Below, piece by piece: positions 10,439 through 50,965 of a DNA stretch of 64,000 bases; the first letter of the stretch is position 1; each line of letters opens with the position of its first letter. The position numbers and the translations under genes were made by a program. This DNA is from a virus (lineage: Duplodnaviria > Heunggongvirae > Uroviricota > Caudoviricetes): the IMG/VR virus record IMGVR_UViG_2537561978_000005; one strand, 5' to 3'. The notes under the pieces were generated by a model. That model searched no databases. It was not told where the DNA came from and saw only the letters and a program-made list of their open reading frames with translations.

Positions 10439-10467
10439 TTGATCTTCCATGTTTTCAGGCTTATATT
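10439..10467 (+). promoter_or_regulatory. Candidate sigma70 promoter for the immI-like module
   Basis: TTGATC (10439-10444), 17-nt spacer, TATATT (10462-10467). Confidence 0.35.
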
Positions 10468-10599
10468 CATGCCGTCGTAGCAAATTCTGCGACCGGGTTT
10501 GACAGCCTGAATGTTAGTGCGGACAACCGCAGATTTCCGATATTGCGGTATTTTTGTGTCCGTAAACCGCGTTACGCCCGAATTATGGTGGGGCGTGAT

Positions 10600-10690
10600 G
10601 GGGAGGCTTCGGCCTGCTGGTTTCACTAACGCCAGTCTGTCAACCCTGTCACGTCCTGCCACCTGTTTGACAGCGGGTGGCAGGTTGTTA
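10600..10690 (+). ncRNA. Candidate c4-like antisense regulatory RNA
   Basis: Nested inverted repeats (CCTGCCACC 10655-10663 with GGTGGCAGG 10676-10684; CTGTCAA with TTGACAG); TCACTAAC at 10623-10630 is complementary to GTTAGTGA at 10696-10703 covering the SD of the downstream icd-like gene. Confidence 0.3.
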
Positions 10691-10713
10691 AACCTGTTAG
10701 TGAGGCCGTAACT

Positions 10714-10938
10714 ATGGTTAATGCCAATCCTTGCTCACGTCCAGAATTCATCTGGCGTTTCCACTCCCTGCAAAAACGCTGCGATCACTTCGCAATTGCC
10801 GCAACCGAAAAAGAAGCCCGTTCTCTGATCCCTGATCAGCATGGTGTTCTTACTGGTCGTTTCTCTACTTCCCCACAACCAAACACTAATCCCTGGTATC
10901 GCAATATTACCAATCCCGGCATTGCGGAGGCTCACTGA
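10714..10938 (+). CDS. Icd-like small protein (first gene of immI-like operon)
   Basis: 74 aa; paralogue of 49462..49677 (shared EFIWRF, AATE.EARS); SD GTGAGG 8 nt upstream. Confidence 0.5.
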   Translation: MVNANPCSRPEFIWRFHSLQKRCDHFAIAATEKEARSLIPDQHGVLTGRFSTSPQPNTNPWYRNITNPGIAEAH

Positions 10939-11645
10939 TGGGTATCTGCATTCTCGAAAAACTATCAATGACCAGCATTGAGATTGCGGAGCTGGTGGGA
11001 AGCCAACACTCTGACGTTAAACGTAGTATTGAGCGTATGGTTGCTCGAAGCATTATCCGAAAACCGCCAATGGCTGTTTTCGAAAAAATCAATAACTTAG
11101 GATTGCGTCGTGGCGTTGAGGCTTACGTCTTCGAAGGCGAGCAAGGCAAACGAGACAGCATCATTGTCGTCGCGCAGCTCTCTCCCGAATTCACCGCCCG
11201 GCTGGTGGACCGCTGGCGCGAACTGGAAGAACAAGTACGCCAGCCGTTGACCGAAATAGAGATGATCGCTGCAATGGCTGCGAATGCAGTTCAGCAGCAA
11301 AAGCTGATTCATGCTGTTGAGTCAAAGGTTAGCCAGGTCGCTGAAACCGTCGAGCAAATAAAGAAAGGCAATATTCCGGAAGGCTACATTGGCTACCGCC
11401 AGTTGGCGGCGAAATGCGGCCTGACTGAAGCCAAATGCCGAAACCTTGTCAACGCTTACCGGATTCCCACCGATACACATGAGTTTTTGACTCCAGAGGG
11501 GGTATTGTCGCGTCGTTCCATCGTGGCCTTATCTCCCTTCATGAATGCTTTTAACCGGATGATGTCGGAGGCTGAACACCGAGGAAAACGCTGGTATCAC
11601 CCCAAAATGGGGCAATTCCAGGTGATCGGTTGGGGAGGTGAGTGA
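10938..11645 (+). CDS. Rha-family antirepressor (Ant-like), N-terminal 235 aa ending at a premature stop
   Basis: MTSIEIAELVGSQHSDVKRSIERM is the phage pRha N-terminal motif; start overlaps icd stop (TGATG); paralogue 49677..50618 is 313 aa and continuous. Confidence 0.6.
   Translation: MGICILEKLSMTSIEIAELVGSQHSDVKRSIERMVARSIIRKPPMAVFEKINNLGLRRGVEAYVFEGEQGKRDSIIVVAQLSPEFTARLVDRWRELEEQVRQPLTEIEMIAAMAANAVQQQKLIHAVESKVSQVAETVEQIKKGNIPEGYIGYRQLAAKCGLTEAKCRNLVNAYRIPTDTHEFLTPEGVLSRRSIVALSPFMNAFNRMMSEAEHRGKRWYHPKMGQFQVIGWGGE
11133..11237. repeat. About 105-bp patch about 95% identical to 49873..49977
   Basis: Direct nucleotide comparison of the two ant paralogues. Confidence 0.8.
11341..11496. repeat. 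About 156-bp patch about 95% identical to 50101..50256
   Basis: Direct nucleotide comparison; flanking sequence is much more diverged. Confidence 0.8.
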
Positions 11646-11841
11646 TGGACATCATGCAGGCGGTAAAAAAATCAGGGAAGGACAGGCTGAAGTGTGCCGC
11701 CGTAAAGCATGGAGTGTTGGTGTATGGGCCTGGCCTGATAATTACTCTACTACCGGATGGTTTTGTATTAATGGACTCCAGATCCGGGAAGTTGATTTAT
11801 CGACGGCTGATATAGTCGGTAATGATTGGATCGTGACTTGA
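11638..11841 (+). CDS. Ant C-terminal fragment in +1 frame (homologous to C-terminus of 49677..50618)
   Basis: EVCRRKAWSVGVWAWPDN and VDLSTADIVGNDWIVT align with IVCRRASWPEGVWVWPEG and IDLAPEDVVATDWIVS of the intact paralogue; GTG start overlaps upstream stop. Confidence 0.5.
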   Translation: MSDGHHAGGKKIREGQAEVCRRKAWSVGVWAWPDNYSTTGWFCINGLQIREVDLSTADIVGNDWIVT

Positions 11842-11850
11842 AGCGTGATG

Positions 11851-11875
11851 CCCCGGCCTGGCCGGGGCTTTTTTC
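11851..11875 (+). terminator. Rho-independent terminator between convergent genes
   Basis: CCCCGGC-ctg-GCCGGGG followed by CTTTTTT. Confidence 0.6.
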
Positions 11876-23780: not shown

Positions 23781-23855
23781 GATGGTGTAGCTCAGCGGTA
23801 GAGCAGTTGGCTGTTAACCAACTGGTCGGTGGTTCGAATCCACCCACCATCGCCA
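23781..23855 (+). tRNA. tRNA-Asn (anticodon GTT)
   Basis: Cloverleaf folds by hand: acceptor GATGGTG/CACCATC, D stem GCTC/GAGC, anticodon loop CTGTTAA, T arm GGTGG-TTCGAAT-CCACC, 3' CCA encoded. Confidence 0.85.
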
Positions 23856-23860
23856 ATTTA

Positions 23861-23947
23861 GGGGAGTTAGTCCGTAGGGGTAGCGGGGTAGACTGTAAAT
23901 CTACTGTCATTGCGACTCGGGTGGTTCGACTCCATCACTCCCCACCA
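23861..23947 (+). tRNA. Type II tRNA-like, probable tRNA-Tyr (anticodon GTA)
   Basis: Acceptor GGGGAGT/ACTCCCC, anticodon arm GTAGA-CTGTAAA-TCTAC, long variable arm, T arm GGTGG-TTCGACT-CCATC, CCA; D arm did not fold cleanly by hand. Confidence 0.5.
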
Positions 23948-23951
23948 AATT

Positions 23952-24027
23952 GCCGGTTTAGCTCAGTTGGTAGAGCAGTCGCTTTGTAAGCGAATGGTCA
24001 GCGGTTCGATCCCGTTAACCGGCACCA
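23952..24027 (+). tRNA. tRNA-Thr (anticodon TGT)
   Basis: Acceptor GCCGGTT/AACCGGC, D arm GCTC-AGTTGGTA-GAGC, anticodon loop TTTGTAA, T loop TTCGATC, CCA. Confidence 0.8.
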
Positions 24028-24481
24028 ACACAACAGGTAAGAGCATTTGTAGAGTTCGACTCTCTACCGTGGGCTTTTTCCCGCGATGCGAGCCATAAAT
24101 GCTCTTACCGTTGTGATGAAGTGCAGCTCTTTGAAGCAACCAGAAGATAAGCATCTGGCTTCACAACATAAACCGCAGGAACGACCAATAAACGGTAGTC
24201 CGTATGGAGAACACCCCGTTGAGGAAGAGGTCTGGCCGGAACCGTAACCGGCACTACAACGTTGAGAACACTGGCGTAACGGGGTCATATCCCAATCTAC
24301 GAATAAATGTTGCGTTGCAGCGTGACAACCAGTGTTCTCAACATTGTGGTGAATGCGCAGGCTGATGCGCGAAAGACATTGCAGCTATTGCGGAAAAGAG
24401 CTGTTCGGCGGGGCAATTAAACGCCCGTGAGAGTCTGAAATAACCGCAAGCCGGAGATCAGCACCGGTCGCCACAATAACG

Positions 24482-24568
24482 GGAGAGTAGGGAGCATGGT
24501 GCTCAAGCGGTCTTGAAAACCGTCCCATTGCGCAAGCGATGATGGTTCGATTCCATTACTCTCCGCCA
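24482..24568 (+). tRNA. Type II tRNA-like, probable tRNA-Ser (anticodon TGA)
   Basis: Acceptor GGAGAGT/ACTCTCC, anticodon arm CGGT-CTTGAAA-ACCG, long variable arm, T arm GATGG-TTCGATT-CCATT, discriminator G, CCA. Confidence 0.5.
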
Positions 24569-24859
24569 GTGCAACATTAAGGGTATTTGGCTAATTAAGC
24601 GAATGCCGGAAGCAGAACCGGATCACCAAATGCGTACAGGCGTCATCGCCGCCCAGTCAGCCAAATGCTCTTACCATTGCGGTGAATGCGGCTAAGCGCA
24701 CGCGGAACAGTTAAAACAGTAAAGGTGGTCTTTTTACTGGCGTAACGAGAATCCATAAGTGATCCGGCGTTAATTGTTAACTGGTTAACGTCACCGGGAG
24801 GCGCCCGGCACCGCAACCTAACAGCAATGGCGTTTTGTCTTAAAAGGTGGCTGCAAGTG

Positions 24860-24988
24860 ATGGATTTTTGGGCGTTTGCCGATAAAAACCCGGAGTGGAC
24901 ATTATTGTTTCTGCTGGTGGTTGCATACGGGGTAGAGCAAGCGGCAAAAGCCTTACGCGGTTCTGGCAAAAAGCGTAAGCGTAATTAA
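24860..24988 (+). CDS. Small hydrophobic peptide (42 aa), hypothetical
   Basis: ATG 24860 preceded by AAGGTGG at 9 nt; MDFWAFADKNPEWTLLFLLVVAYGVEQAAKALRGSGKKRKRN; below the ORF-track size cutoff. Confidence 0.3.
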   Translation: MDFWAFADKNPEWTLLFLLVVAYGVEQAAKALRGSGKKRKRN

Positions 24989-24997
24989 CAGTAATCT

Positions 24998-25073
24998 GGC
25001 CCTTTAGCTCAGTGGTTAGAGCGGGCGACTCATAATCGCACGGTCACCGGTTCAAGTCCGGTAGGGGCCACCA
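24998..25073 (+). tRNA. tRNA-Ile2-type (anticodon CAT, lysidine-type; formally also readable as Met)
   Basis: GGCCCTTTAGCTCAGTGGTTAGAGCGGGCGACTCATAATCGC...GGTTCAAGTCCGGTAGGGGCCACCA closely resembles E. coli ileX from memory. Confidence 0.8.
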
Positions 25074-29890: not shown

Positions 29891-30928
29891 TTACCAGAGC
29901 TTCGCGGCGTACTGCGTTTGGGGGAATGTGTATCCGTAACGTTCTTCGATTGCTTTGCCGTATTTTTTACGAGCTTCATTCAGTTTTATGCCGGTCAGGT
30001 CGTCTCCAGAGGCCATCATTACGTCTAACAATTCCAGATCCATTTTATCCAGCCTTGCCATTGCTTCACGTGATGTACGTATCTTACGCTCAATGATATG
30101 GCGAATAGCCGGATCGGCATCCTCCAGCATCTTAGCGGATTTCTGCTTAAGGCTTTCATTGCGAATATCGATGTTCCTTAAGATGTACGACTTCGCAACG
30201 TAGCTTGGCTGGTGTTTTTCCAGGTCACGAACACGATATAAGTTAAAATCGCCGAGAAGGCTGCAAGGTACCGATTCGACGCCAGAATAAATTGTAATGC
30301 TCCGGCGCTCACCAACATTATTGACAACGGGGATCGTTGTCTTCGGTAGTCTTGCGAAAACCAATGCGCCATGTGCGCCAACTCTAAAGCGAGAAAGGGC
30401 ATTGCTGCCTTCGATGTTTGTTGTCAGCACAACATCTGTATATGCCTCTTTACGCGCCCGGTAGATCTCGCCTTCAGGCTCAGCTTCAAAGAAGCGCTGT
30501 TCTTCTTCAAGAGCACCTACGATTTGAGAAAAAACCCTATTTTTCAGGCTTTTCTTTATGATTTTGTCGTATTTTTTGAGCAATTGTTCACGTGTAAATG
30601 TACGTGTTGTTGTAGCGCTTTGCACAACAACATGCGTGCTTTGATTGGTGTCCTCAATGATGAATGGGATCGGAGAATATACAGACTCAACAATGTTCGA
30701 CGCTTTGCCGTCGGCATCGCGGCACATGTCAACGAAGGCTTTCCATTCAGCAAGACATTTTTCAGCTTCTTCTAATATGTTTTGGTCATGCGTTAATGCA
30801 ACATGGCGGAATTCCTCGCCAGCATAACTGGTATCATGGAAAACAGAGTTTGCGACCACCAGCTCTTTCCACCGTTCAGCGGTTTGCAGGAACCGTTTGT
30901 ACTCTTTCTCGATCGACTTCTTACTCAT
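29891..30928 (-). CDS. Hypothetical protein; candidate master repressor by position and by operator at its own start
   Basis: 345 aa; sits between pacB and lox-cre where P1 carries c1; operator-like motif 20 bp upstream of its ATG; no sequence-level match asserted. Confidence 0.5.
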   Translation of the reverse strand: MSKKSIEKEYKRFLQTAERWKELVVANSVFHDTSYAGEEFRHVALTHDQNILEEAEKCLAEWKAFVDMCRDADGKASNIVESVYSPIPFIIEDTNQSTHVVVQSATTTRTFTREQLLKKYDKIIKKSLKNRVFSQIVGALEEEQRFFEAEPEGEIYRARKEAYTDVVLTTNIEGSNALSRFRVGAHGALVFARLPKTTIPVVNNVGERRSITIYSGVESVPCSLLGDFNLYRVRDLEKHQPSYVAKSYILRNIDIRNESLKQKSAKMLEDADPAIRHIIERKIRTSREAMARLDKMDLELLDVMMASGDDLTGIKLNEARKKYGKAIEERYGYTFPQTQYAAKLW

Positions 30929-48071: not shown

Positions 48072-48650
48072 ATGCAGAAACAGAGTTATTGGGAGAAACA
48101 GAGACAAAAAGCCATGCAAAAATTGGCTGACCCGGCCTGGCGAGAGGAACAAAGGGCAAAGCGCCTTCAACAAGCTCAACGCCAGCAGCAGCGAGCGAGA
48201 GAAAAAGCCGCATCGCCTGAATATCGGCAAAAGAAAATTGAAAAAGCAAAGCAATATGAACAGCGGAGAAAAGATAAAGCTGTATCCGCTCCGTCCAAAA
48301 AAACACGCACGTCACGCGGCCTGAAAGGCAGATCACTCACAGCCGATGAACGCCGGATACAGACCGCTATCGGTGCTCTCCCCTGCATTGCCTGCCATAT
48401 TCACGGGCAACATAGCCCAGTGGTATCCCTGCACCATATCTTCGGGAGAACGGCAGAGAACGCGCATAAATATGTCCTCCCTTTGTGTAAATGGCACCAC
48501 CAGTACGCAGCGCCAGCCGAGGTCAGAGAACAATATCCCTGGCTGGTCCCTGTTCATGCTGACGGAAAAATAGGCGGAAAAGCAGATTTCATGCGGCACA
48601 ATGCCGATGAAATGACGTTGTATCAGATGGCGATTGAGTTGATAAATTAG
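48072..48650 (+). CDS. HNH-type nuclease-like protein (Ref-like)
   Basis: 192 aa, basic N-terminus then CIACHIHGQH...HHIFGRTAENAHKYVLPLCKWHH His/Cys cluster. Confidence 0.4.
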   Translation: MQKQSYWEKQRQKAMQKLADPAWREEQRAKRLQQAQRQQQRAREKAASPEYRQKKIEKAKQYEQRRKDKAVSAPSKKTRTSRGLKGRSLTADERRIQTAIGALPCIACHIHGQHSPVVSLHHIFGRTAENAHKYVLPLCKWHHQYAAPAEVREQYPWLVPVHADGKIGGKADFMRHNADEMTLYQMAIELIN

Positions 48651-48664
48651 TTTTCTAACATTTT
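48648..48664 (-). promoter_or_regulatory. Operator-like motif
   Basis: TTTCTAACA at 48652-48660. Confidence 0.4.
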
Positions 48665-48981
48665 AAGTTGAATTGAAAAACTCTCCGATGTACATTCACT
48701 ACCGATTGGCACACCGGTCAACTTTTTGAGACAAACTGTTTAGTTTTTCGTATTATTGCCTCCGCCATACCTATGGCGGTGCAATATAGGTGGCTGAAAA
48801 GCCCCCGTTGACTCACGGTGTTCCAGCCTTTATTGCGCCGCCACCAGACCGTGGAACAGTCGATGGCGGCTCCGAAAGCAAGGAGTCACAACACTATGAA
48901 CAACTACAGTCTTTTCCCATCACTCGTCTTCCACCACTCACGCGATAATCTGCATTCTTTACTCGCGCTGGAGGTGTCAAA

Positions 48982-49149
48982 ATGACGGTTCGCTACCTCA
49001 ACTTTCAAATCAAGAACATTACTGGCGGTTGCTATGACTGGTTTGTCACTCTCGGAAAAGAAGTGATCACCGGGAAGCTGGATGAAGTGAAAGCTAAAGC
49101 AATGGCCTACGCCTGCAAGCAAGCCCGGAAGAAATCCGCCAAAGCATAA
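48982..49149 (+). CDS. Small basic protein (55 aa), hypothetical
   Basis: ATG 7 nt after GGAGGTG; followed by a strong terminator; below track cutoff. Confidence 0.4.
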   Translation: MTVRYLNFQIKNITGGCYDWFVTLGKEVITGKLDEVKAKAMAYACKQARKKSAKA

Positions 49150-49253
49150 AATACTGACTGTTGCGCCCTGGCATTATCGTGGGGTATATTTCTACGGCAC
49201 CTTAGAAAAACGGGTGCCGGGATTGAGACCCCGGATAATGCAAAAGGCGACAC

Positions 49254-49276
49254 AGACGCCGAAAGCGTCTTTTTTT
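49254..49276 (+). terminator. Rho-independent terminator
   Basis: AGACGC-cgaaa-GCGTCT followed by TTTTTT. Confidence 0.65.
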
Positions 49277-49324
49277 GTGTCATGCCATCGCACAGCCATA
49301 CGTAGCGTATAGCTCCAAGATCAA

Positions 49325-49400
49325 TGGTAGTGCTGGCTGGGCTGCCGAAAGGCAGGCCGGTTCCCTTTTGCGCCGGTAGTCTCAACCCAGCCAGTGCTAC
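49325..49400 (+). ncRNA. Candidate c4-like antisense regulatory RNA (second specificity)
   Basis: Perfect 16-bp inverted repeat GGTAGTGCTGGCTGGG / CCCAGCCAGTGCTACC enclosing CTGCC-GAAA-GGCAG hairpin; CCCTTTTGC (49362-49370) is complementary to GCAAAAGG (49442-49449) at the SD of the downstream icd-like gene. Confidence 0.35.
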
Positions 49401-49461
49401 CGCCATTGAGATTGAGACCTCACGCGGTAGCTCCTTAAATTAGCAAAAGGAGGCTGCCAAT

Positions 49462-49677
49462 ATGGCTACTATCCCTACCCCAACTCATTCTGAATTTATC
49501 TGGCGTTTCTATTCCTGCCAAAAGCACCTGTATATCTGCGTCATGGCTGCTACCGAATCAGAGGCGCGCTCATACCTTCCCGAAGAACCCTGCATTTTTG
49601 CTGCTCGCTTCACTCTTGATGCGATGGAGATCCTCAATTACTGGAATCTGCCGATGAACTGCGTGGAGGTGCGCTGA
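49462..49677 (+). CDS. Icd-like small protein (second copy)
   Basis: 71 aa; AAAGGAGG RBS; paralogue of 10714..10938. Confidence 0.5.
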   Translation: MATIPTPTHSEFIWRFYSCQKHLYICVMAATESEARSYLPEEPCIFAARFTLDAMEILNYWNLPMNCVEVR

Positions 49678-50618
49678 TGAATCTGTCCATCTCTCAAAAA
49701 GCGACAATGACCAGCATTGAGATCGCGGAGCTGGTAGGAAGTCGCCCAGATAGTGTGAAGAGAACTATCGAAACACTGGCTAAAAAGAGTGTGATCCAAT
49801 TTCCACAATCTGTGGAAATTGAAAATAAACAATCAGTTGGCCCTCGTCGATTTTCCAAGGCTTACATCTTTGAAGGCGAACAAGGAAAACGAGACAGCAT
49901 CATTGTCGTCGCGCAGCTCTCTCCGGAATTCACCGCCCGGCTGGTGGACCGCTGGCGCGAACTGGAGAATGCCCGGGTACAGTTAAAATCAAAAGCCGAA
50001 ATCCTGGCTGAAATGGCGCAAATGCATCTTGAGCATGAACGCCGGATCAACGCCGTAAATGCCCAGGTAGCCGAGGTATCAGCACAAGTATCGATGGTCG
50101 CTGAAACCGTCGAGCAAATAAAGAAAGGCAATATTCCGGAAGGCTACATTGGCTACCGCCAGTTGGCGGCGAAATGTGGCCTGACTGAAGCCAAATGTCG
50201 CAACCTGGTTAACGCTTACCGGATTCCCACCGATACGCATGAGTTTTTAACTCCAGATGGTTTGCTTGCGCGACGCTCCATTGTGGCCCTGGCCCCCTTC
50301 CGGAAAGCCTTTAAGCAGGTGATGTCAGAGGCAGAACCACGCAATAAACGCTGGTATCATCCAAAGATGGGGATGTTTCAGGCAATCCACCATCCTGTGC
50401 CTGAAAGTCCAAAGGCAAACCTGTCGTTGCATACCGCCAGAGAGAGGATTAAAACAGGCTATGCAATCGTATGCCGTCGAGCATCCTGGCCTGAAGGTGT
50501 ATGGGTGTGGCCCGAAGGTGGATCACGAAAGCACTGGCGCACTATCCGGGATGGGAAAATCCATGCGATTGATTTAGCTCCAGAGGATGTTGTTGCTACG
50601 GACTGGATTGTTAGTTAA
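49677..50618 (+). CDS. Rha-family antirepressor (Ant-like), intact
   Basis: 313 aa; MTSIEIAELVGSRPDSVKRTIETL pRha motif; start overlaps icd stop. Confidence 0.65.
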   Translation: MNLSISQKATMTSIEIAELVGSRPDSVKRTIETLAKKSVIQFPQSVEIENKQSVGPRRFSKAYIFEGEQGKRDSIIVVAQLSPEFTARLVDRWRELENARVQLKSKAEILAEMAQMHLEHERRINAVNAQVAEVSAQVSMVAETVEQIKKGNIPEGYIGYRQLAAKCGLTEAKCRNLVNAYRIPTDTHEFLTPDGLLARRSIVALAPFRKAFKQVMSEAEPRNKRWYHPKMGMFQAIHHPVPESPKANLSLHTARERIKTGYAIVCRRASWPEGVWVWPEGGSRKHWRTIRDGKIHAIDLAPEDVVATDWIVS

Positions 50619-50626
50619 TTACTGTT

Positions 50627-50648
50627 GCCCCGGCCTGTCCGGGGCTTT
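50627..50648 (+). terminator. Terminator-like hairpin
   Basis: GCCCCGG-cctgt-CCGGGGC followed by TTT. Confidence 0.45.
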
Positions 50649-50677
50649 AACTACTAAATAACCGGATTCTCCGCACG

Positions 50678-50965
50678 ATGAAGAAAATAGATTTCACTTA
50701 CTCTGCTGCCACAATCCAGCGACGTTTCAGTCTCATAAGGGAAGTGGAACTATCAAAAAACTGCTATCAAATTCTACTGGATGAAGAGTTTTCACTGATG
50801 GTTATAGCAGAAAAATTGGCTATGCCGAATGACCGACACAAGGTCATAGCCAGCCTCGATCTGGTGACAAACAGATACTGGGAGACAGAGGAACTACATG
50901 AAGCGGGAGTAATTCGTGGCCTGATGGAGAATTCCGTTCCCCGTCGTTATAGTGTGATGAGCTAA
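50678..50965 (+). CDS. Hypothetical protein
   Basis: 95 aa ORF, weak RBS. Confidence 0.4.
   Translation: MKKIDFTYSAATIQRRFSLIREVELSKNCYQILLDEEFSLMVIAEKLAMPNDRHKVIASLDLVTNRYWETEELHEAGVIRGLMENSVPRRYSVMS

Follow-up and report, generated by a model that had tools for sequence, protein, structure and literature searches.

A probable second c4-type immunity module, with its own antisense specificity, in a D6-like phage-plasmid genome

Two immI-like regions in one genome

In phages P1 and P7, the immI region consists of a c4 antisense RNA followed by icd and ant1/ant2 (Citron and Schuster 1990, as cited in the P1 GenBank annotation; PMC2864571; PMC12197685). The viral DNA examined here (IMG/VR record IMGVR_UViG_2537561978_000005; 64,000 nucleotides [nt], hereafter called the window) contains two regions of this appearance, designated modules 1 and 2, which raises the question of whether module 2 (positions 49161 to 50648) is a complete immunity module and whether its antisense RNA is independent of that of module 1. 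We consider it likely that module 2 is a complete, probably functional immunity module of the c4 type (i.e., immI-like), built as a three-part RNA circuit. A second c4-icd-ant module with an antisense specificity of its own had been proposed from the sequence alone (the original prediction), and this proposal was borne out by membership of its RNAs in Rfam families, by their structure, by recognition boxes that are complementary and covary among relatives, and by the identities of the icd and ant genes. RNA processing, repression in trans, the decoy role of the upstream RNA, and orthogonality in vivo are what we infer from these features.

An IsrK-family RNA, a C4-family RNA, and the icd-ant genes

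Rfam searches at gathering thresholds (GA) identified two RNA families upstream of the icd-like gene (Table 1). The C4 model (RF01695) matched over its full length (model positions 1 to 87 of 87; 76.0 bits versus a GA of 45) at the place where a structured RNA (49325 to 49400) had been predicted. RNAfold returned a stable fold of -49.1 kcal/mol (z = -6.3 versus shuffles) in which the a' and b' recognition boxes were left unpaired. The closing stem (49326 to 49341 with 49386 to 49401), which encloses two hairpins, has the 16 base pairs originally described, of which 14 are Watson-Crick and 2 are G-U pairs. In an alignment of 15 C4 RNAs of both module types, compensatory (double) changes were found at 16 of the 24 predicted pairs. 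Hairpin 2 was not recovered by RNAalifold from this 15-sequence alignment, because the P1-type and IsrK-type RNAs are offset by a 2-nt gap, and is present in both the Rfam match and the single-sequence fold. The mature RNA of module 2 (C4-2) is predicted, by analogy with the annotated 77-nt C4 of P1, to span 49326 to 49404.

Upstream of C4, the isrK model (RF01394) also matched in full at 49197 to 49275 (model positions 1 to 77 of 77; 59.1 bits versus a GA of 50). This IsrK-like RNA consists of a 5' hairpin, a second hairpin with the a1 box in its loop, a single-stranded b1 box, and an intrinsic terminator. The terminator had originally been ascribed to a 55-amino-acid (aa) open reading frame (ORF) that precedes the RNAs; the ORF is there, but the terminator belongs to the IsrK-family small RNA (sRNA). 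The start of this RNA is predicted near G49197, 6 nt after the -10 hexamer of a promoter-like site lying between the stop of the 55-aa ORF (49149) and the RNA start. A TATATT -10 hexamer, likewise 6 nt ahead of where the Rfam IsrK match begins, is also found in PisrK of the Salmonella prophage Gifsy-1, and PisrK has been demonstrated experimentally to drive its operon (PMC4825925). The position of the promoter-like site is kept in the P1-like phages RCS47 and JL22 and in F039.

The c4-a1b1 model (RF03163) scored 21.7 bits on the IsrK-like hairpins of module 2 (E value, 0.0027), below its GA of 46.7, although the RNA carries both a1 and b1. Reciprocally, the isrK model reached 44.5 bits on the a1b1 region of module 1, with the terminator hairpin included. 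At the isrK locus of Gifsy-1, all three models scored above threshold (isrK, 79.3 bits; c4-a1b1, 48.1 bits; C4, 69.0 bits), and the isrK and c4-a1b1 matches overlapped. Mutagenesis of that locus had shown that IsrK G28A or G31A abolished activation and that C162U or C159U restored the inactive structure (PMC4825925). When we mapped the boxes onto Gifsy-1, IsrK nt 26 to 32 corresponded to a1 (UUGGCGU) and nt 158 to 164 corresponded to a' (ACGCCAA); the compensated pairs G28-C162 and G31-C159 fall within these boxes and are therefore a1-a' pairs. By their matches, the Rfam isrK and c4-a1b1 models appear to describe the same element; because the published pairs between IsrK and orf45 are exactly a1-a' pairs, IsrK would be the a1b1 element of a c4 circuit.

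All ORFs of module 2 are intact. Its Icd is 63% identical to that of P1, and the start codon of ant overlaps the stop codon of icd (TGATG, 49675 to 49679), reproducing the P1-type succession of icd and an anti-repressor gene. The module-2 Ant is 66% identical to the module-1 Ant and scored 26.2 bits against Pfam Phage_pRha, below the cut-off of 29.9. The hairpin after ant is the probable end of the operon; its T-run is too short for the terminator scan, and the homologous hairpin after module 1 (11851 to 11875) has a full T-run. With an IsrK-family RNA that carries the a1 and b1 copies of the target boxes, module 2 would be organized as decoy, repressor, and target, as in P1. The 55-aa ORF was rejected as a part of the module because, in RCS47, JL22, and 673R5, the IsrK-C4-icd unit directly follows pacB without that ORF.

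The region containing module 2 (48900 to 50700) shared 97.9% identity with Escherichia phage D6 (MF356679) and 99.8% with an E. coli plasmid; between 49150 and 49700, identity with D6 was 100%. Accordingly, the window is a D6-like, P1-related plasmid prophage (i.e., a phage-plasmid). The region was matched in 453 plasmid records, mostly non-mobilizable E. coli plasmids of ~90 kb. The D6 GenBank record labels it with orf85, orf84 (antisense), orf83 ("inhibition of cell division, similar to P1 icd"), and orf82 ("putative anti-repressor") and annotates no RNA at module 2, leaving the C4 and IsrK RNAs unlabelled.

Two recognition boxes that covary in three copies

Both boxes of module 2 show complete Watson-Crick complementarity at all four sites (7/7 pairs for a and 8/8 pairs for b): a1 and b1 in the IsrK-like RNA and a2 and b2 in the icd leader are each the complement of a box exposed in C4. 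The a' box (GUCUCAA in the RNA) occupies the same structural position as a' of P1 (CTGTCAA), and b' reads CCUUUUGC in the RNA. The pattern TTGAGAC-N5-30-GCAAAAGG occurred three times in the 64 kb, always in module 2 (as a1b1, as the reverse complement in C4, and as a2b2), versus 0.00 occurrences expected from shuffles. Single boxes elsewhere in the window occurred at chance frequency.

Searching viral contigs for the conserved leader yielded 120 loci, representing 73 distinct 330-nt IsrK-C4-leader sequences, from which the boxes were extracted at fixed structural positions, with G-U pairs allowed. These relatives fell into 12 specificity classes (9 a' types and 6 b' types). Pairing with a' or b' was free of mismatches for a2, b1, and b2 in 73/73 relatives and for a1 in 70/73, the exceptions (L084, L096, and L009) having one mismatch each; non-cognate box combinations mostly had 1 to 5 mismatches. 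The pairing of CCUUUUGC with GCAAAAGG at the icd Shine-Dalgarno sequence, proposed in the original prediction, was confirmed as b'/b2. Variation at a finer scale was similar: among 42 near-identical copies of the D6/P1 type, common polymorphism affected 12 of 45 box columns and 13 of 223 other columns (Fisher P = 1.3e-4). It consisted of dinucleotide swaps (AG/GA in a; CA/TC in b) repeated in all three box copies, and all four combinations of a and b types occurred. The covariation of box complementarity supports a two-box kissing mechanism well beyond P1 and P7.

A second contact had been placed between GGCAG in the RNA and CTGCC in the leader, and this did not stand up. GGCAG is the paired 3' arm of hairpin 1, and in relatives this arm reads GGTAG, GTCGG, TCCGC, GGCTC, and others beside an unchanged CTGCC (which was fixed by the search pattern, so that only the missing covariation counts, not the conservation of CTGCC). 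The second recognition contact is instead a'/a2 (GUCUCAA/UUGAGAC), and a corrected recognition-box map for module 2 is a by-product of this analysis. A leader hairpin (GGTAGCTCCTT/AAGGAGGCTGCC) that would sequester the Shine-Dalgarno sequence was considered as a possible reason for the retention of CTGCC and was left unused; it is predicted with a z score of -1.1 (not significant), and its conservation in other classes was not evident.

Three IMG/VR contigs deviated from the usual arrangement. In L084 and L096, a1 is of one type (TTGAGAC or TTGGAAC), and a' and a2 are of the other; recombination between the IsrK part and the C4 part apparently produced them, leaving a decoy that would match C4 more poorly than the target. 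In L080, about ten tandem CACCAAT units lie between a2 and b2, making the spacing much longer in an otherwise typical module.

Table 1. Positions in the window of the parts of module 2 and of other features considered in the text
Feature	Position	Strand	Evidence or remark
Promoter-like site of the IsrK-like RNA	49161-49190	+	-35 TTGCGC (49161-49166), 18-nt spacer, -10 TATATT (49185-49190); sequence reading
IsrK-family small RNA, putative equivalent of the P1 a1b1 element	49197-49277	+	Rfam isrK RF01394
a1 box TTGAGAC	49223-49229	+	Complement of a'; in the IsrK-like RNA; perfect in 70/73 relatives
b1 box GCAAAAGG	49240-49247	+	Complement of b'; perfect in 73/73 relatives
Intrinsic terminator of the IsrK-like RNA	49254-49277	+	AGACGC-CGAAA-GCGTCT + T7; terminator scan; 3' hairpin of the isrK model
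C4 antisense RNA gene	49320-49407	+	Rfam C4 RF01695
b' box CCTTTTGC	49364-49371	+	Loop of hairpin 2; fold and complementarity
a' box GTCTCAA	49379-49385	+	Single-stranded junction 3' of hairpin 2; fold and P1 alignment
a2 box TTGAGAC	49412-49418	+	icd leader; fixed 26 nt after a'; perfect in 73/73 relatives
b2 box GCAAAAGG	49443-49450	+	Overlaps icd Shine-Dalgarno AAGGAGG (49447-49453); perfect in 73/73 relatives
icd-like gene, 71 aa	49462-49677	+	NCBIfam NF033153 phage_ICD_like, 50.3 bits (cut-off 25)
Anti-repressor gene, 313 aa, Rha-type	49677-50618	+	phrog_63 "anti-repressor Ant," E 1e-61
GC-rich hairpin after ant	50627-50648	+	GCCCCGG-CCTGT-CCGGGGC + TTT; sequence reading
ORF overlapping C4	49324-49443	+	Pfam Phage_ASH (PF10554), 26.8 bits (cut-off 26); corresponds to Gifsy-1 "orf45"
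D6 orf84, 99 aa	49107-49406	-	Antisense to both RNAs; D6 GenBank annotation
55-aa ORF (D6 orf85)	48982-49149	+	phrog_7786, E 4e-43; conserved phage ORF without assigned function
Module 1	10461-11841	+	
Module 1, a1b1	10461-10513	+	isrK-like to 10555
Module 1, C4	10581-10666	+	
Module 1, icd	10714-10938	+	
Module 1, ant	10938-11645	+	Rha-type; 235-aa ORF
Module 1, 67-aa ORF	11638-11841	+	phrog_7385
C1-repressor homolog	30134-30910	-	21% identical to P1-type (RCS47) C1
TGTTAGAAAAYTAAT sites	9150, 10355, 21299, 22548, 26509, 30942, 32352, 45142, 47994, 48646, 62199, 62214		15-nt motif; up to 2 mismatches

Specificities of the two modules

The C4 RNA of module 1 (Rfam, 68.8 bits) is identical to P1 c4 at 77/77 positions, with boxes TTGACAG/GTTAGTGA and b' TCACTAAC, and the c4-a1b1 model scored 55.2 bits on the a1b1 element of that module. 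The complementary sequences of the two modules, which had been said to differ completely, do differ, though only in part (at 2/7 positions of a and at 3 to 4 of the 8 positions of b). The boxes of P1 and P7, for which heteroimmunity through c4 has been stated (PMC12197685), differ at 2/7 (a) and 2/8 (b) positions. The differences between the two modules are at least as large as those between these heteroimmune phages, with which the original prediction had compared them.

Duplex energies were computed for the exposed C4 segment. For C4 of module 1, the predicted cognate duplexes with the leader and with a1b1 had energies of -31.4 and -29.0 kcal/mol, and the non-cognate duplexes had energies of -10.5 and -18.2 kcal/mol, respectively; the corresponding values for C4-2 were -28.5 and -36.3 kcal/mol (cognate) and -17.3 and -20.9 kcal/mol (non-cognate). 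Cognate duplexes were thus 11 to 21 kcal/mol more stable than cross duplexes. Since the boxes of the modules differ, the two C4 RNAs should not cross-repress; their orthogonality appears well supported by sequence, and independent regulation of the two modules is predicted. Module 1 of D6 has b' TCGTAAGT with a matching b1, in contrast to module 1 of the window with the b' of P1. At module 2 the two genomes do not differ, so that specificity shifts independently in the two modules among close relatives.

The ant gene of module 1 is split into two overlapping ORFs (Table 1), and the same split is annotated in D6; the C terminus of the 313-aa Ant of module 2 matches the family of the 67-aa ORF of module 1. 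The two ant paralogs share long near-identical stretches, which suggests that exchange may have occurred between the modules.

How the circuit may work

In the mechanism that we propose, the promoter at 49161 to 49190 would start the IsrK-family RNA at 49197, and most transcripts would end at 49277, displaying a1 in a loop and b1 as a single strand. Read-through would give the C4 RNA (cut out to about 49326 to 49404, as in P1) together with the icd-ant message. C4 would expose b' through the hairpin-2 loop and a' in the junction 3' of that hairpin and would pair in trans with a2 and b2, which would cover the Shine-Dalgarno sequence and block the translation of icd; ant would also be blocked via the overlapping stop and start codons and, as in P1, by polarity. 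The short IsrK-like RNA would titrate C4 and relieve repression, as IsrK does in Gifsy-1. That it competes for C4 and so lifts repression is the most likely role by analogy, because it has the boxes of the leader and because, in Gifsy-1, IsrK supplied in trans raised anrP translation 139-fold (PMC4825925). For the isrK family, Hfq binding and activation of the downstream anti-repressor in trans are known only from Gifsy-1 (PMC4825925).

Several observations weigh against this account. The expression of module 2 is a prediction from sequence; a generic promoter scan made no call at 49161 to 49190, the -35 hexamer being weak; and no C1-operator-like motif was found at this promoter. The module-2 Ant had no significant similarity to P1 Ant1 in BLASTP (E value, 0.34), and the C1 homolog of the window is only 21% identical to a P1-type C1. 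The 73 relatives are kin by descent, and the search pattern that retrieved them fixed the AAGG end of b2 and part of the leader. IsrK remained toxic in Gifsy-1 when the processed RNA was over-expressed, and the authors explain their data by a structural switch in cis with coupling to an upstream ORF, not by repression in trans by a processed RNA (PMC4825925).

Transferred to module 2, a switch of the Gifsy-1 type would have the middle of IsrK (a1 to b1) pair in cis with the C4 region (a' to b'), rendering the long transcript translationally silent; short IsrK would displace this helix, translation of the ORF at 49324 to 49443 would be coupled to the downstream gene, and C4 would not be a free repressor. 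The mechanism was established by mutagenesis in the homologous locus (PMC4825925), and the duplex of a1..b1 with b'..a' is the most stable of all the combinations computed here (-36.3 kcal/mol). The required ORF exists and matches Pfam Phage_ASH; its AUG lies in the 5' stem of C4, and 18 nt separate its stop from the start of icd. In Gifsy-1, likewise, the first AUG of orf45 (A107) belongs to an AUGG at the base of the C4 stem. However, the minimum free energy structure predicted for 49197 to 49475 has the IsrK-like and C4 domains folding independently. A switch in cis also needs neither a2 nor b2, yet both covary perfectly with a' and b' in all 73 relatives, and b2 lies on the Shine-Dalgarno sequence. 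Furthermore, no Shine-Dalgarno sequence precedes ATG 49324, and the C4-overlapping ORF varies among classes in length and frame (37 to 39 aa with an early stop in some and an in-frame fusion to the downstream gene in others), its P1 counterpart stopping inside c4. For this variation, the ORF was set aside as a conserved coupling device and was retained only within this alternative, which we judge rather unlikely. Switching in cis and repression in trans are not mutually exclusive, and the former may be either a rival or a complement of the latter.

Control of the P4 CI type is considerably less probable. In that case, the processed RNA would pair, on nascent transcripts, with a seqA-like box upstream (a1b1) and a seqC-like box downstream (a2b2), and transcription would terminate prematurely instead of translation being blocked. 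The likeness lies in the layout: in P4, too, a processed small RNA lies between complementary boxes (upstream box, RNA, and downstream box) and controls lytic or derepression functions, and an intrinsic terminator directly follows a1b1 in module 2. The analogy comes from the Gifsy-1 authors, who liken IsrK to P4 seqA and do not cite the P1 c4 work; their over-expressed processed RNA did not act as a termination factor (PMC4825925). Unlike P4 CI, which acts by transcription termination, module 2 has its b2 box on the ribosome-binding site, and this overlap with the Shine-Dalgarno sequence recurs in every relative, which points to translational occlusion. In addition, the terminator scan predicted no terminator after a2b2. 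In P1, c4 lowers transcription only secondarily, via Rho-dependent polarity.

It is very improbable that module 2 is an inert duplicate or recombination relic, or that its conserved stretch encodes small proteins rather than RNAs (the Phage_ASH match of the plus-strand translation is just above the cut-off, the antisense ORF is annotated in D6, and related plasmids carry the PGAP label "ash family protein" at the C4 stretch), given that the module-2 ORFs are intact, box complementarity is perfect and covaries, compensatory stem pairs are the signature of an RNA and not of a protein constraint, the minus-strand ORF had no family match, and the plus-strand ORF changes its length and frame relation between classes. 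The protein calls on the C4 stretch (ash family and orf84) probably reflect the conserved RNA gene.

Relation to known systems

The trans-acting circuit proposed for module 2 has its elements in the same order as P1/P7 immI: a promoter (a promoter-like site in module 2), a1, b1, an RNA of ~77 nt (predicted to be processed in module 2) with b' in a hairpin loop and a' in the junction after it, a2, b2 on the Shine-Dalgarno sequence of icd, icd itself, and an overlapping anti-repressor gene. The annotated layout in P1 is a1 (7 nt), b1 (8 nt), and the 77-nt C4, followed by a2 and b2 at the ribosome site of icd, with a1 and b1 labelled only as "putative" C4 target sites. The RNAs belong to the same Rfam C4 family, and specificity resides in two short boxes differing by few bases between types. 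Module 2 differs from these regions in its boxes (TTGAGAC/GCAAAAGG, versus TTGACAG/GTTAGTGA in P1 and TTAGCAG/GATTGTGA in P7), in an upstream element that scores as isrK rather than c4-a1b1, and in a Rha-type anti-repressor unrelated to Ant1/2; no C1-operator-like motif was found beside its promoter-like site. The module-1 Ant showed no similarity to P1 Ant1 either.

With the isrK-orf45/STnc1160-anrP locus of Gifsy-1 (PMC4825925), module 2 shares an IsrK-family RNA that has its own terminator and, in module 2, a promoter-like site ahead of it. In both, a C4-family RNA and an anti-repressor gene come next, and the IsrK boxes are complementary to the C4 region. Gifsy-1 has no icd, and its orf45 abuts anrP (AUGA), whereas in module 2 icd intervenes and the C4-overlapping ORF ends before it. 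The Gifsy-1 boxes are TTGGCGT and a CACCG-type b, and the element is a lambdoid prophage rather than a plasmid prophage. Stx and other lambdoid phages often carry IsrK-C4 pairs (273 phage records), which are annotated as such in at least one record.

Two modules per genome are a recurrent arrangement, since D6, RCS47, JL22, and 673R5 each carry a classical immI and an IsrK-type second module with different boxes. The classical immI has P1-type a and b' TCGTAAGT in D6, P7 boxes in RCS47, the a of P1 and the b of P7 in JL22, and the a of P7 with b' TCATTCGT in 673R5. The second module lies between ref and pmgF in D6 and the window and between pacB and c1 in RCS47, JL22, and vB_EcoM-673R5. Its boxes also differ elsewhere: the b box of RCS47 is GTCAAAGG (b' type CCUUUGAC), and 673R5 has TTGGCCT/GTCTAAGG. 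RCS47 and JL22 are 86 to 87% identical to the window over IsrK-C4-icd; the downstream anti-repressor differs, and tblastn gave no match to the RCS47 protein.

Module 2 is therefore already known in kind: its RNA families are catalogued in Rfam, phage D6 has been sequenced, and a published paper has noted that a D6-like plasmid contains a second region with an antisense RNA and icd (PMC6799933). In itself module 2 adds little to these records, the genome being essentially that of phage D6. What it does contribute is a box specificity that is new and the joining of an IsrK-type leader to a P1-type icd in one hybrid unit.

A broader reading, to which we give an even chance, is that IsrK sRNAs are the "a1b1" leader of P1 and serve as target-mimic decoys for c4-family repressors. 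P1 immI, Gifsy-1 isrK, and the Stx-phage and D6 loci would then be one decoy-repressor-target circuit, addressed by two boxes (7 nt + 8 nt) whose combinations diversify as a code while the three copies of each box change together, and P1/D6-like phage-plasmids would carry two orthogonal circuits each. If so, a single phage-plasmid genome would have separate control over each of two anti-repressors. Both the box code and the equivalence of IsrK with a1b1 can be seen in the data presented here, and neither was found stated in the literature that could be searched; searches on the diversity of c4 specificity in phage-plasmids returned nothing relevant. The link between the Gifsy-1 IsrK and P1 c4 literatures offers a function (decoy or activator) for the a1 and b1 sites of P1. 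The covariation table (12 classes, with compensatory changes that recur in all three box copies) could be used in designing orthogonal RNA repressors or in assigning phage-plasmids that spread resistance genes to superinfection immunity groups.

A candidate C1 operator and other features of the window

The operator consensus of P1 C1 had no match in the window at up to 3 mismatches. A dispersed 15-nt motif, TGTTAGAAAAYTAAT, was present at 12 sites with at most 2 mismatches, versus 0.33 expected (Table 1). One site lies just upstream of the gene for the distant C1 homolog, two flank ref, and one is 75 nt upstream of the module-1 promoter; the site nearest to module 2 (48646 to 48660) is 540 nt upstream. 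This motif is probably the C1 operator of D6.

Ahead of the small ORFs that precede module 2, a perfect 8-bp inverted repeat (CCGCCATA-CC-TATGGCGG; 48761 to 48778) lies just 3' of a promoter-like site called by the scan (48728 to 48756). A cluster of five tRNA genes (Asn-GTT, Tyr-GTA, Thr-TGT, Ser-TGA, and Met-CAT) is located at 23781 to 25073.

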